Source: Escherichia coli
GTDB lineage: Bacteria > Pseudomonadota > Gammaproteobacteria > Enterobacterales > Enterobacteriaceae
Direction: 5' to 3' (one strand)
DNA length: 64,000 bases
Assembly (NCBI RefSeq): GCF_024223415.1
Contig: NZ_CP100500.1
Part shown: one piece after another, positions 18,660 through 56,492 of the stretch
Position numbering within the stretch: position 1 is the stretch's first letter
How the letters are laid out: every line of letters starts with the position of its first letter
The notes under the pieces: model-generated
The model's database searches: none
What the model saw: only the letters and a program-made list of their open reading frames with translations
What the model was told of the DNA's origin: nothing
Made by a program: the position numbers and the translations under genes

Positions 18660-18735
18660 TGGCTCCTCTGACTGGACTCGAACCAGTGACATACGGATTA
18701 ACAGTCCGCCGTTCTACCGACTGAACTACAGAGGA
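18660..18735 (-). tRNA. asnV: tRNA-Asn (GUU)
   Basis: Reverse complement matches the E. coli tRNA-Asn sequence including CCA. Confidence 0.95.
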
Positions 18736-21068: not shown

Positions 21069-21144
21069 TGGCTCCTCTGACTGGACTCGAACCAGTGACA
21101 TACGGATTAACAGTCCGCCGTTCTACCGACTGAACTACAGAGGA
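21069..21144 (-). tRNA. asnU: tRNA-Asn (GUU)
   Basis: Identical sequence to asnV. Confidence 0.95.
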
Positions 21145-22892: not shown

Positions 22893-22968
22893 TCCTCTGT
22901 AGTTCAGTCGGTAGAACGGCGGACTGTTAATCCGTATGTCACTGGTTCGAGTCCAGTCAGAGGAGCCA
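22893..22968 (+). tRNA. asnW: tRNA-Asn (GUU)
   Basis: TCCTCTGTAGTTCAGTCGGTAGAACGGCGGACTGTTAATCCGTATGTCACTGGTTCGAGTCCAGTCAGAGGAGCCA. Confidence 0.95.
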
Positions 22969-37875: not shown

Positions 37876-37951
37876 TGGCTCCTCTGACTGGACTCGAACC
37901 AGTGACATACGGATTAACAGTCCGCCGTTCTACCGACTGAACTACAGAGGA
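37876..37951 (-). tRNA. asnT: tRNA-Asn (GUU)
   Basis: Identical to asnV/asnU. Confidence 0.95.
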
Positions 37952-38942: not shown

Positions 38943-39032
38943 GGAGAGATGCCGGAGCGGCTGAACGGACCGGTCTCGAAAACCGGAGTAGGGGCAACTC
39001 TACCGGGGGTTCAAATCCCCCTCTCTCCGCCA
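38943..39032 (+). tRNA. serU: tRNA-Ser (CGA)
   Basis: GGAGAGATGCCGGAGCGGCTGAACGGACCGGTCTCGAAAACCGG...CTCTCCGCCA, long variable arm, anticodon CGA. Confidence 0.9.
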
Positions 39033-40608: not shown

Positions 40609-41244
40609 TTATAGAGATAATTTGTTGTGAACCTGCTTGCGTAACCGGTTGAAAAAGGAAAGCAACTTCTTATACCGTAAGGCTAAAAGCAGTACCGCCA
40701 GCCCAGCGTAGATGAGCGGCTGCGGTGAAATAATCTTCACTGACCACAGATAATGTATTGGGGCCAGGATCGCGACAAGATAGACGAAATTATGCAACTG
40801 TTGCCAGTGCTTGCCGAGTTTTCGCTGCATCGCCTGGGTTGAAGTAAACGCTAAAGCAAGCAAAATAACCCAGCTGATAATTCCTAACGTTAAATAAGGC
40901 CGGGTAATTAACTCCTTACCTAATAACGCCAGATTATTCACGCCCAGCTCCAGCAATGCGTAACTGGTTAAATGCAGTGTCGCCCAGGCAAAGCACCATA
41001 AGCCTAACAGGCGGCGAGTGCGTATCAATAACGGCTGTTTTGCGTAGCGTGCCAGAGGTGTGATTAACAAGGTCGCCAGCAAAAATTTCAGTGCAGTGCG
41101 ACCGGTAAAATGCTGAATATCTTTCACTGGATCGGCACCCAGTCCACCGTGATTGATCGCCCAGACCAGCCAGAGAAACGGCAACAATCCGGCAAGATGC
41201 AGGCAAACTTTCAGCCATGTCACCTGTTTTGCTGTCAGACGCAT
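40609..41244 (-). CDS. msrQ: methionine sulfoxide reductase haem-binding membrane subunit
   Basis: 211-aa polytopic membrane protein immediately downstream of msrP. Confidence 0.9.
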
Positions 41245-42255
<1,011 letters not shown>

Positions 42256-42357
42256 TCACACTTTTTTGTCGTTAGCCAGCAAGAGCCGTTTACTGTTAAT
42301 CTGTCAGGGAGTCACCTCCCTAACAGTAGCAGAGATCTGCTTTTATATATTTATGCA

Positions 42358-42771
42358 TTAACTGCCACGATAGGTTGAATACCCATATTGGCTGAGTAAT
42401 AAAGGCACATGATAATGCTCGTTCACTTTATTGATATGAAATTCAACGGGGATCTCAGGGAAGAAACTTTCAAGATTTTGTTTCTTGAAATAGTCCCCGG
42501 TTTTAAATACGACACGGTAATCGCCAGTAGTCGCAGTTTGCTCGGGCCACAGTGCCTTAATTCGTCCATCCTTATCTGTTTTGGCGGTATTAAGTTGTAA
42601 CCAGCCGTTGTCCGCTTTCTTTTCAAGAGTGACTGTCACGTCGGCAGCGGGTTTTCCTGTTTGCTGGTTCAAAATATGCACGCTAAGAATGTTTTGTTGT
42701 GCAGCATAGACCAAAGAAGGTAATGAAAATGCAGCCGTTACTACGGAGAGTACTAAATAACGCTTTAACAT
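42358..42771 (-). CDS. hiuH: 5-hydroxyisourate hydrolase (transthyretin-like)
   Basis: 137 aa ending in YRGS. Confidence 0.9.
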
Positions 42772-42840
42772 GTTTATATCCTTGTCATGTGAATGATTTT
42801 TGAGGATAGCGAAAAAACGTCCAGGGTAACCTTACAGAAG

Positions 42841-42858
42841 CATTACAATTTTGTAATG
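42841..42858. promoter_or_regulatory. HprR-box-like palindrome in the hiuH/hprR divergent region
   Basis: cattacaattttgtaatg, perfect inverted repeat. Confidence 0.6.
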
Positions 42859-42903
42859 AACCAGGCTGTTTCTATAACATATGATTTATGGCATATTATT
42901 TTC

Positions 42904-43575
42904 ATGAAGATTCTACTTATTGAAGATAATCAAAGGACCCAGGAATGGGTAACGCAGGGGCTTTCCGAAGCGGGTTATGTCATTGATGCCGTTACTGATG
43001 GCAGAGATGGGCTTTATCTTGCGCTGAAGGATGATTATGCATTGATCATTCTGGATATTATGCTTCCGGGTATGGATGGCTGGCAGATCTTACAAACGTT
43101 AAGAACGGCAAAGCAAACTCCTGTTATTTGCCTTACTGCAAGAGATTCTGTCGATGACAGAGTCAGAGGGCTGGACAGTGGGGCAAATGATTATCTGGTA
43201 AAACCTTTTTCATTTTCTGAGTTGCTGGCAAGGGTTCGGGCACAATTAAGGCAACATCACGCTTTGAATTCAACACTAGAAATCAGCGGCTTAAGAATGG
43301 ACTCTGTTAGTCAAAGTGTGAGCAGGGACAATATCAATATTACACTGACGCGCAAGGAGTTTCAGTTACTTTGGCTACTGGCCTCCAGAGCTGGCGAAAT
43401 TATACCCAGAACGGTTATTGCGAGTGAAATTTGGGGAATCAACTTTGATAGTGATACCAATACGGTGGATGTCGCCATTCGCAGGCTCCGCGCAAAAGTT
43501 GATGATCCTTTTCCTGAAAAGCTAATCGCCACAATCCGGGGGATGGGCTATTCATTCGTAGCGGTAAAAAAATAA
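42904..43575 (+). CDS. hprR: OmpR-family response regulator
   Basis: 223 aa from MKILLIEDNQRTQEWV. Confidence 0.9.
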   Translation: MKILLIEDNQRTQEWVTQGLSEAGYVIDAVTDGRDGLYLALKDDYALIILDIMLPGMDGWQILQTLRTAKQTPVICLTARDSVDDRVRGLDSGANDYLVKPFSFSELLARVRAQLRQHHALNSTLEISGLRMDSVSQSVSRDNINITLTRKEFQLLWLLASRAGEIIPRTVIASEIWGINFDSDTNTVDVAIRRLRAKVDDPFPEKLIATIRGMGYSFVAVKK

Positions 43576-44933
43576 TGAAAAGATTATCTATAACCGTCCG
43601 TTTAACCTTGCTTTTTATATTGCTGCTGTCTGTTGCTGGCGCTGGAATTGTATGGACTCTCTATAATGGCCTGGCAAGTGAGTTGAAATGGCGCGATGAT
43701 ACAACACTCATTAACCGGACAGCGCAGATCAAGCAGTTGTTAATTGATGGGGTAAATCCAGATACGTTACCTGTGTACTTTAACCGGATGATGGATGTTA
43801 GTCAGGATATCTTGATCATTCATGGTGATAGCATCAACAAAATTGTTAACCGGACGAATGTCAGTGATGACATGTTAAATAACATACCTGCTACTGAGAC
43901 AATCAGCGCAGCTGGCATTTACAGAAGCATTATTAATGACACAGAGATAGATGCTTTACGAATTAATATTGATGAAGTTTCGCCATCATTAACGGTTACT
44001 GTGGCTAAATTGGCTTCAGCCAGACATAACATGCTTGAACAGTATAAAATTAATAGCATTATAATTTGCATTGTCGCCATTATACTGTGCTCAGTATTAA
44101 GTCCGTTGTTAATCAGAACGGGGTTACGAGAGATCAAAAAGTTGAGTGGTGTAACGGAAGCGCTGAATTATAACGATAGCCGAGAGCCTGTTGAGGTTAG
44201 CGCATTACCGAGAGAACTAAAACCTCTTGGGCAGGCGTTGAATAAAATGCACCAAGCCTTAGTCAAAGATTTTGAACGCCTAAGTCAATTTGCTGACGAT
44301 CTCGCTCATGAACTTAGAACGCCAATTAATGCATTACTGGGTCAGAATCAGGTTACGCTCAGTCAAACCAGAAGTATCGCTGAATATCAAAAAACAATTG
44401 CCGGAAACATTGAAGAGCTGGAAAATATTTCGCGGTTAACAGAGAATATACTGTTTCTTGCCAGGGCAGATAAAAACAATGTTTTGGTGAAACTGGATTC
44501 GCTTTCTCTCAATAAGGAAGTCGAAAATTTGTTGGACTATCTTGAATACCTTTCAGACGAGAAAGAGATTTGCTTTAAGGTCGAGTGCAATCAGCAAATC
44601 TTTGCGGATAAAATTTTACTGCAACGAATGTTATCGAATCTTATTGTTAACGCCATTCGATATTCACCAGAAAAATCGCGCATTCATATAACCAGTTTTC
44701 TTGATACCAACGGCTATCTTAATATTGATATCGCCAGCCCTGGAACGAAAATTAATGAGCCTGAAAAACTCTTCCGTAGATTTTGGCGGGGAGATAATTC
44801 GCGTCATTCCGTAGGTCAGGGACTTGGTCTTTCTTTAGTCAAAGCGATTGCCGAATTACATGGAGGAAGTGCTACGTATCACTATCTCAATAAGCATAAC
44901 GTGTTCCGAATTACGTTACCGCAAAGAAATTAA
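43575..44933 (+). CDS. hprS: sensor histidine kinase
   Basis: 452 aa; HAMP/HisKA/ATPase-type sequence; overlaps the hprR stop. Confidence 0.9.
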   Translation: MKRLSITVRLTLLFILLLSVAGAGIVWTLYNGLASELKWRDDTTLINRTAQIKQLLIDGVNPDTLPVYFNRMMDVSQDILIIHGDSINKIVNRTNVSDDMLNNIPATETISAAGIYRSIINDTEIDALRINIDEVSPSLTVTVAKLASARHNMLEQYKINSIIICIVAIILCSVLSPLLIRTGLREIKKLSGVTEALNYNDSREPVEVSALPRELKPLGQALNKMHQALVKDFERLSQFADDLAHELRTPINALLGQNQVTLSQTRSIAEYQKTIAGNIEELENISRLTENILFLARADKNNVLVKLDSLSLNKEVENLLDYLEYLSDEKEICFKVECNQQIFADKILLQRMLSNLIVNAIRYSPEKSRIHITSFLDTNGYLNIDIASPGTKINEPEKLFRRFWRGDNSRHSVGQGLGLSLVKAIAELHGGSATYHYLNKHNVFRITLPQRN

Positions 44934-46483: not shown

Positions 46484-47671
46484 TTAGAACTGGTAGACTA
46501 AGCCCACAGCAACGATATCATCGGTAGCGATACCGTTTTCTTTGTAGAAGTCGTCGTCGTTGTCCAGCAGGTTGATTTTGTAATCAACGTAGGTGGACAT
46601 GTTTTTGTTAAAGTAATAGGTCGCACCGACTTCAACGTATTTAACCAGATCTTTGTTTGCGTAGTGATGATTACCCTGGCTATCAAAGTTATCACCATTC
46701 AATCCGCCTAAATCCTTACCTTTAGATTGCAGGTAAGCGATGGACGGGCGCAGACCGAAGTCGAACTGATACTGAGCAACAACTTCAAAGTTTTGGGTTT
46801 TGTTAGCGATGGCATCAGCATCACCGTAACCAGTCATGTTACGGGTTTCAGCATACATAGCTGCTAAGTAAACGTTATTAGCGTCGTATTTAGCACCAAC
46901 GGTCCATGCTTCTGCTGTTTCACCGCCAGCAGTTGCATCGAAGCGATCTCCATAACGAGTGTTATGCAAACCTTTGTGAACCTGATTGTCAGTACGGTCA
47001 GAATTAGAATATGCAGCACCCAGACTTAAACCAAAGTCAAAGTCATAGGAAGTGGACATACCGTAACCGTCGCCGTTCTCTTTAGCAAGTTTACGGCCAT
47101 TCCCGTTACCTGAACCTTCTTGATCAAATAATCCGCTTTTCTCGTTGTTACCTTGATACTGGAGTGCAAAGTTCAGACCATCAACTTGACCAAAGAAACC
47201 ATTGTTACGATAGGTTGCTACGCTGTTAGCACGACCGTTCATGAAGTTGTCGGCACCAGCATAGGTATCGCCACCAAATTCTGGCAGCATATCGGTCCAT
47301 GCTTCGATGTCATATACGACACCGTAGTTACGACCATAGTCGAAAGTACCATTCTGACCAAAGCCTAAACCTGCAAATGCCAGACGCGTTGCGGTATTAC
47401 CTTTGTCGCTTTCAGGACCGTTTGCGCCAATGTTAAATTCCCACTGACCATAACCAGTGAATTGGTCAGCGATCTGAGTTTCACCTTTGAAACCGATACG
47501 GGCATATGACATGTCGCCATCGCTGCCAGCATCATCAGAGAAGTAGTGCAGGCCCGCTACTTTTCCGTACAAATCCAGTTTATTACCATCTTTATTATAG
47601 ACTTCAGCCGCATTTGCTGCGCCAGCAACTAATAACGCCGGGACCAGCATTGCCAGAACTTTTCTTTTCAT
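46484..47671 (-). CDS. yedS: general outer-membrane porin (OmpC/OmpF/NmpC family), intact
   Basis: 395 aa from [22 protein letters not shown]-terminal ...VGLVYQF beta-barrel signature. Confidence 0.8.
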
Positions 47672-48235
47672 TATGTATTCCCTTGTGATTATAATCTTCA
47701 TGGATATATCAATAAGTGCCGTTATCCAAAAAAGCACATTTGGATACTATTCTATGAAGTTCATTTTATTTTAAGGGTTACATGTAACAAATGTATTTAA
47801 AAGATTTCAAAATGTTTCCAATCTATTTAATATAATTCAGAATTATGAATTCTAGATATAAGCATTCATGAGATTTATAAATATATATCAATATGTTATG
47901 AGTTAATCGGAAAGATAGGGAGTATCAATGAGTGTTGCGCTAAACGGCTGGTGTGATCACGCGCATATTAATGAAGGCATAAAAAAAAGCCGGCATCATG
48001 CCGGCCCAAAAAATATAAACAAGACGATAAAAGGCTAATAACGGGGTTATCATGACACAGAAATCAAAAAAGGTATAATTGAATTCGGTGCTAATATATT
48101 GTTTAGGTGAATTAATAAAACCATTACCATAGATAATAATAAATCTTTATTGCTGTTTTTCCGGTAATTATTGCCATTGCGCAAAAATTATCTATTTGTT
48201 CAAAAAATGATTGAGTCTTGACTGGCTCATCCAAT

Positions 48236-56405: not shown

Positions 56406-56492
56406 AACACATCAGATTTCCTGGTGTAACGAATTTTTTAAGTGCTTCTTGCTTAAGCAAGTTTCATCCCGACCCCCTCAGGGTCGGGATTT
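56406..56492 (+). ncRNA. dsrA: DsrA small regulatory RNA (activates rpoS, represses hns)
   Basis: AACACATCAGATTTCCTGGTGTAACGAATTTTTTAAGTGCTTCTTGCTTAAGCAAGTTTCATCCCGACCCCCTCAGGGTCGGGATTT matches DsrA as recalled, including its terminator. Confidence 0.9.

Follow-up and report, generated by a model that had tools for sequence, protein, structure and literature searches.

The spacer between the divergent hiuH and hprR genes of Escherichia coli contains an inverted repeat that is very probably the operator of the two-component system HprSR (YedVW), with the paralogous copper regulator CusR using the same site. The repeat was found in a 64 000-nt stretch of E. coli DNA (hereafter the window) and is the YedW/HprR element of strain K-12 in another E. 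coli strain, i.e. an element that is already known. As quoted (10.1101/2021.09.09.459708; PMC9302797) from Urano et al. (2015, 2017), the K-12 box reads CATTACAAAATTGTAATG and lies in the hiuH–hprR spacer. On the hiuH strand of the window, this 18-mer is present with no mismatches at positions 42841–42858, and the box conforms to the family consensus ATKACAAnnTTGTMAT. Counted from the hiuH start codon (ATG at 42771; the ATG of hprR is at 42904), it occupies positions +70 to +87 (42771 + 70 = 42841 and 42771 + 87 = 42858), so that its location agrees exactly with the one quoted for K-12.

The earlier note on this DNA had placed an HprR-type site between hiuH-msrPQ and hprRS, regarded it as known biology and proposed a comparison with published HprR sites. 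That comparison showed the box to be identical in sequence and in position to the element as quoted: all 18 bases agree, as do the spacer and the distance of 70–87 bp from the hiuH ATG, with no substantive difference. The assignment is thus upheld by identity with the published box, by equivalog-level identification of the flanking genes and by the reported binding of HprR, and the box is indeed one already published. The features of the locus are listed below by their coordinates in the window.

40609–41244, minus strand: msrQ (yedZ); NCBIfam equivalog NF003831, 240 bits, above the cut-off
41245–42249, minus strand: msrP (yedY); NCBIfam equivalog NF003767, 506 bits, above the cut-off
42358–42771, minus strand: hiuH (yedX), first gene of the regulated operon; NCBIfam equivalog NF011610, 297 bits, above the cut-off
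42803–42808, minus strand: predicted −10 hexamer of hiuH, TATCCT, as read from the sequence
42830–42837, minus strand: third half-site, CTGTAAGG on the hiuH strand and CCTTACAG on the plus strand; putative role
42841–42858, no strand assigned: HprR/CusR box; arms 42841–42848 and 42851–42858, 8 nt each, spacer 2 nt
42892–42897, plus strand: predicted −10 hexamer of hprR, CATATT, ending 6 nt before the ATG
42904–43575, plus strand: hprR (yedW), OmpR-family response regulator; HprR equivalog NF008567, 481 bits (cut-off 353)
43575–44933, plus strand: hprS (yedV), sensor histidine kinase; TIGR01386, 319 bits, RefSeq name HprS

The hprR product also matched TIGR01387 (380 bits), a match that assigns it to the heavy-metal subfamily of OmpR-type response regulators, and the RefSeq annotation is concordant with its identity as HprR. 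The kinase matched only the subfamily model of heavy-metal sensor kinases (TIGR01386), its name being that of the RefSeq annotation. According to RT-PCR data in the literature, hiuH-msrPQ is a tricistronic operon. In the list of open reading frames, hprR starts further upstream, with an ATG at 42793 (42793–43575, 260 aa), and runs straight through the box; this extension was rejected as an artefact of ORF calling, as the 223-aa start at 42904 is backed by the full-length equivalog match and by the leaderless-transcript data discussed below.

Binding and induction data

Direct evidence of binding and expression comes from the literature on K-12 and O157 strains, the induction data being from reporter and qRT-PCR measurements. 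In gSELEX experiments with purified HprR, a peak was found in the hiuH/hprR spacer, with a lower affinity than that for the cusR/cusC spacer (PMC8249747). In O157:H7, whose box is identical to that of the window, HprR was detected on the hiuH promoter by ChIP-seq, ChIP-qPCR and EMSA (PMC13064566). Hypochlorous acid causes a YedW-dependent induction of hiuH (1,500-fold), msrP (60-fold) and yedWV, i.e. hprRS (∼20-fold). Chlorite and urate hydroperoxide also act via HprSR, H2O2 is a weak activator, and the induction by HOCl, chlorite and urate hydroperoxide is lost in hprR or hprS mutants. According to the literature, H2O2 is surpassed as an inducer of HprSR by reactive chlorine species, chlorite and urate hydroperoxide. 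The same box is reported to serve CusR in the response to copper as well; copper induces msrP through CusSR, and this CusR-dependent induction proceeds via the same box.

Geometry of the box and chance expectation

On the plus strand, positions 42841–42858 read CATTACAATTTTGTAATG, an inverted repeat with arms CATTACAA and TTGTAATG separated by TT. The arms are 100% complementary and the TT spacer has no self-complementarity. The description in the earlier note, a perfect inverted repeat, is therefore accurate for the 8-nt arms and does not extend to the entire 18-mer (8 + 2 + 8): the reverse complement of the latter is CATTACAAAATTGTAATG, so that it falls short of a perfect palindrome. The interval given there, 42772–42903, coincides exactly with the hiuH/hprR spacer, the 132 nt between the start codons of the divergent genes.

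The G+C content of this spacer is 32.6%, compared with 48.5% for the window. The pattern CATTACAANNTTGTAATG has a single match in the 64 kb, even with up to three mismatches allowed, a tolerance at which matches are not rare by chance (a mean of 0.39 per shuffle); for an exact match to the 16 specified bases, simple arithmetic gives an expectation of ∼64000/4^16 = 1.5e-5. Among dinucleotide shuffles of the 132-nt spacer, a perfect inverted repeat with arms of at least 8 nt and a spacer of 0–10 nt was found in 3.6%, and one with a spacer of exactly 2 nt in 0.4%. Judged as an anonymous repeat, with its identity set aside, the inverted repeat is suggestive of a regulatory site; it is the identity with the published site, together with the cross-genus conservation described below, that makes the evidence decisive. 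There was no Rfam family mapping to the hiuH/hprR spacer.

Conservation of the box and rewiring of the regulon

The box is invariant and its flanks are variable in E. coli (K-12, O157:H7 and all others sampled; the intraspecies alignment covered a spread sample of 7 genomes) and in E. albertii. A scan for HprR, with one genome per species, yielded 15 Enterobacterales orthologues with 62–96% identity. Distant relatives from Vibrio, Burkholderiales and Clostridia (L017–L081; 42–56% identity) were rejected as orthologues, and the scan upstream of the regulator gene detected no box in four of these (L017–L020).

Divergent arrangement of hiuH and hprRS was found in nine further taxa, namely E. albertii, Pseudescherichia, Escherichia sp. 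ESNIH1, Enterobacter sp., Pantoea, Erwinia, Kosakonia, Phytobacter and Shimwellia. The 10 spacers (these nine and the window) have a mean identity of only 63%, and the block CCTkACAG-N3-sATkACmA-NN-TTGTmAT is retained, with invariant columns in both arms. Strong conservation in this alignment is confined to one block of the spacer, the palindrome with the adjoining third half-site; the palindrome is conserved best and lies 45–50 nt before hprR in all 10 taxa. The eight taxa outside Escherichia have hprRS divergent from hiuH and no msrPQ genes downstream; among the taxa examined, hiuH and msrPQ stand together behind one box only in Escherichia. In Enterobacter sp., a gene for an HbpS-like protein (PF03928) is located 7 nt after hiuH.

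Six members of the Morganellaceae have no hiuH, and their msrPQ genes follow hprRS on the same strand. In these genomes the palindrome (ATGACAAnnTTGTCAT) is found between hprS and msrP, and it is absent upstream of hprR. Thus, judging from its placement in the divergent spacers and in the Morganellaceae, the box appears to travel with whichever oxidant-defence operon is controlled by HprSR.

Predicted promoters and position of the box

The hprR gene figures among the leaderless genes known in E. coli, by the Rend-seq criterion of a 5′ UTR of ≤5 nt (PMC8794815). There is no Shine–Dalgarno sequence before its ATG, and the start codon approximately coincides with the transcription start. At the −10 position of hprR, the motif CAnAnT is conserved in nine of the 10 taxa. 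Given the published leaderless start, the centre of the box (42849.5) is located at ∼−50 to −55 of the hprR promoter, which puts the box upstream of the core promoter and not over it, as would fit activation. In the six Morganellaceae, where hprR is not divergent from hiuH, this conserved −10/leaderless arrangement is absent, and several of them have purine runs resembling a Shine–Dalgarno sequence before hprR.

On the other side of the spacer, the place of the predicted hiuH hexamer TATCCT is taken by TATAAC or TATAAA in most of the other genera, as well as in the msrP promoters of the Morganellaceae, 21–22 nt beyond the third half-site, and transcription of hiuH is predicted to start near 42797 ± 3. 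With this start, the centre of the box would be at ∼−52 to −54, the third half-site at ∼−37 and the operator would cover ∼−33 to −61. Both −10 calls rest on the cross-genus conservation of −10-like hexamers. A generic scan of positions 42300–43300 for sigma-70 promoters and terminators called no promoter in the spacer; both were missed because its threshold excludes promoters that depend on an activator and have poor −35 elements.

A candidate third half-site on the target-gene side

The sequence CTGTAAG (42837–42831, hiuH strand) is a direct repeat of the hiuH-proximal arm of the box, 11 bp from core to core, and the 10-taxon alignment has no variation at its positions C62, C63, T64 and C67. 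We oriented towards their target genes 21 promoters of the HprR/CusR/SilR/PcoR type: those of hiuH (n = 10), msrP (n = 6), K-12 cusC, and silC, silE, pcoE and pcoA of a Klebsiella plasmid. A TG[T/A]CA or TGTAA core is present exactly +11 bp to the target-gene side of the proximal arm in 17 of these promoters, and at no other target-side offset from 1 to 41 in any of the 21. On the regulator-gene side, such a core is found in a single promoter, at offset 12. The remaining four promoters have GTCA at the +11 place (Erwinia hiuH, Providencia sp. msrP and pcoE) or lack it (pcoA). The unit consisting of the palindrome and the third half-site is found also at cusC of K-12, at the plasmid genes silC, silE and, in the GTCA form, pcoE and, in the Morganellaceae, in front of msrP.

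A flanking direct repeat has been described for AgrR of Cupriavidus metallidurans, and this was the only literature description found, with none for HprR, CusR or SilR of enterobacteria. For AgrR, footprinting, interference and mutagenesis define the core ATKACANNNNTGTMAT, and direct repeats that flank the core in phase play a part in binding and activation; the footprints extend from ∼−65 to −32 (PMC7380067). The AgrR consensus covers the HprR box exactly, and the feature that characterizes the extended operator of the AgrR type, a further half-site repeated directly at roughly one helical turn from one of the arms, is seen here as well. The organism and the regulator are different, AgrR responds to silver and copper, and its operator is backed by footprints and mutagenesis, whereas the third half-site described here is a prediction. 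At hiuH, the third half-site may contribute to HprR binding and activation. In E. coli NT1W25, an IS3-family insertion at the equivalent of position ∼42816 separates the third half-site from the predicted hiuH −10 hexamer; in this strain, hiuH-msrPQ should therefore be uncoupled from the HprR box, with the hprR side intact.

The T-for-G variant of Escherichia

The G of the half-sites in other genera and in the CusR, SilR and pcoE boxes is replaced by T in E. coli and E. albertii (ATTACAA versus ATGACAA), and this T variant (TGTAA versus TGTCA) occupies all three half-sites. Pseudescherichia and Escherichia sp. ESNIH1 have hybrid T/G half-sites, and the plasmid pcoA box is also of the T type. 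Taken together with the lower gSELEX affinity of HprR for its own spacer than for the G-type cus spacer, the T variant hints that the Escherichia box is a deliberately weaker site, an idea that has two or three lineages behind it. A substitution in the recognition helix of HprR that would track the T/G variant was sought, and the helix TNxVDVAIRRLR proved to be nearly invariant; RRLRA versus RRLRR/K as a tracker of the T-type arms was rejected as a loose fit, too weak to use.

A generalization that we put forward tentatively, as possible rather than probable, is that the HprR/CusR-family operator of Enterobacterales is an asymmetric unit of three half-sites with the direct repeat always on the side of the structural operon, that the third half-site sets the direction of activation and the ∼75-fold gap between hiuH and hprRS, and that the G-to-T change is a tuned variant of lower affinity. 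If this were true, the G-to-T variant would partly insulate the oxidative regulon from CusR or sharpen its threshold.

Comparison with related operators

The CusR box AAAATGACAAnnTTGTCATTTT, between cusRS and cusCFBA, is, like the HprR box, a 7-2-7 inverted repeat between divergent two-component and target operons, and at cusC, as at hiuH, the target side carries a third half-site at a distance of 11 bp (CTGTCAC in the case of cusC). CusR and HprR cross-recognize each other's boxes. The two boxes differ in the half-site base, T in the HprR box and G in the CusR type (ATTACAA and ATGACAA), in the A/T extensions outside the arms, which the HprR box does not have, and in the signal, oxidative in one case and copper in the other. 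The palindrome of CusR, CopR and CzcR in the pcoA2–cusR spacer of Pseudomonas, printed as ATTCATnnATGTAAT, shares the GTAAT half-site with the HprR box and likewise is one palindrome that activates both divergent operons; it is common to several paralogous regulators with differing outcomes, and the inner half-site bases, the regulators and the signals differ from those of the HprR box (PMC11195947). The PhoB and OmpR boxes have in common with the HprR box recognition by regulators of the winged-helix family, a half-site periodicity of ∼10–11 bp and activator-dependent promoters with weak −35 elements. However, PhoB and OmpR sites are tandem direct repeats, whereas the core of the HprR site is an inverted repeat to which a direct repeat is only appended.

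Alternative explanations

The only serious alternative to the palindrome as the unit that activates hiuH is the 11-bp-spaced direct repeat TGTAAT-N5-TGTAAG, which is formed by the proximal arm and the third half-site and has its centre near −42. HprR would then bind as a head-to-tail dimer, as PhoB and OmpR do, leaving the distal arm mainly for the hprR side or for a third protomer. This arrangement, which we consider rather improbable, would refine the main explanation and not replace it. It is in line with the asymmetric distribution of the +11 half-site (target side in 17 of the 21 promoters, regulator side in one of 21, at offset 12), with the retention of this half-site across taxa and with the asymmetry of the output, 1,500-fold versus ∼20-fold. 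However, both arms of the palindrome are conserved as well as the third half-site or better, the publications consulted all define the HprR site as the palindrome, and in the AgrR work the inverted repeat is the core contacted site (PMC7380067).

The other readings have far lower probability. That the box is in practice a copper site of CusR, with control by HprR secondary, is very unlikely: the two regulators recognize the same sequence, msrP does respond to copper through CusSR, and the strongest gSELEX peak of HprR is at cusR/cusC and not in the hiuH/hprR spacer (PMC8249747), but the responses to HOCl, chlorite and urate hydroperoxide disappear in hprR and hprS mutants, induction by HOCl is much larger than that by copper, and the box is next to hprRS in every genus examined. 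A repressor operator placed over the hprR core promoter for negative autoregulation, which is less credible still, could be read from the TTGTAA of the right arm, which resembles a −35 element with TATAAC 16 nt downstream, and from the EcoCyc-derived annotation of HprR as a 'dual regulator'. This reading is contradicted by the leaderless start of hprR, whose 5′ end ≤5 nt from the ATG makes CATATT (42892–42897) the −10 hexamer and leaves the box at ∼−50 to −55, and by the ∼20-fold induction, not repression, of hprRS. Virtually negligible is the chance that the repeat is a fortuitous AT-rich palindrome, an RNA hairpin or the site of some other factor such as FNR or CRP. The spacer is indeed low in G+C (32.6%) and some 8-nt inverted repeat arises in 3.6% of its shuffles, but the box is an exact match to a site defined by experiment, and its conservation extends across genera; a loss of conservation at orthologous loci, which would speak against the box, was looked for and not observed. 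An RNA hairpin or terminator was rejected because a hairpin cannot form with a loop of 2 nt and the box is upstream of the hprR start and of the predicted hiuH start, and an FNR or CRP site because the box does not fit TTGAT-N4-ATCAA or TGTGA-N6-TCACA. A putative FNR site, TTGAAGATAATCAA (42920–42933; −148 to −162 relative to the hiuH ATG), falls within the coding sequence of hprR, and its deletion had no effect on a hiuH-lacZ fusion (PMC9805139).

Proposed mechanism and significance

In the scheme that follows from the HprSR operator as the preferred reading, oxidants (HOCl, chlorite, urate hydroperoxide and, weakly, H2O2) activate the kinase HprS by oxidation, and HprR then binds in the hiuH/hprR spacer and activates hiuH-msrPQ and hprRS, as reported in the literature. 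A dimer of phosphorylated HprR would place its two winged-helix domains head to head on CATTACAA and TTGTAATG, the centres of which, 10 bp apart, would lie along a single side of the double helix; this geometry is deduced from the symmetry of the palindrome, and OmpR-family regulators usually bind direct repeats. The single symmetric site would recruit RNA polymerase to two divergent promoters with weak −35 elements, and the third half-site, present on the hiuH side only, would add a contact next to the −35 region, which would explain the far stronger response of hiuH than of hprRS. CusR may compete or cooperate at the same box.

The box couples periplasmic sensing of chlorine- and urate-derived oxidants to the detoxifying protein HiuH and to methionine-sulfoxide repair by MsrPQ. 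According to the literature, the system affects the fitness of E. coli in the inflamed gut, and it affects the virulence of EHEC (PMC13064566). The value of the finding lies in the fact that a known regulatory site is directly legible in raw sequence; in addition, the third half-site, the Escherichia T variant and the rewiring of hiuH and msrPQ across families offer testable refinements of a known operator.

Strain context and the hiuH–msrP spacer

The 1.35-kb stretch around the box is 99.9% identical to that of E. coli WG5, and the locus (at least 80% of this stretch covered) is present in 5401 of 5426 complete E. coli genomes. The 132-nt spacer has at least 99% identity in 29 of 5415 E. coli records, with WG5 the closest and none identical among the matches listed; this small number suggests that the window comes from a less commonly sequenced lineage. 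There are three differences from the K-12 spacer (42797, 42817 and 42838), all of them outside the box and the third half-site.

In the mRNA of the operon, the hiuH–msrP spacer (42301–42341, minus strand) contains two adjacent hairpins, one with a 5-bp stem at 42328–42341 and the other with an 11-bp stem, CUGUUAGGGAG/CUCCCUGACAG, at 42301–42326. Together they have a dG of −26 kcal/mol and a z of −5.6, and a U-tract is lacking; K-12 and E. albertii share these stems without change, and the loop varies (GTGA, GACA, AACT). These hairpins may be an attenuator or a stabilizer of the hiuH mRNA, and could be related to the difference between the 1,500-fold induction of hiuH and the 60-fold induction of msrP.

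Elsewhere in the window, an intact porin-like ORF (46484–47737, minus strand; 417 aa from a GTG start, with a signal peptide) occupies the place of the yedS pseudogene of K-12. The remaining landmarks are those usual for this region of E. coli, namely four tRNA-Asn(GTT) genes, tRNA-Ser(CGA) (serU) and the small RNAs RseX and DsrA; the coordinates of these tRNA and sRNA landmarks are as follows.

18660–18735
21069–21144
22893–22968
37876–37951
38943–39032
47982–48071
56406–56492
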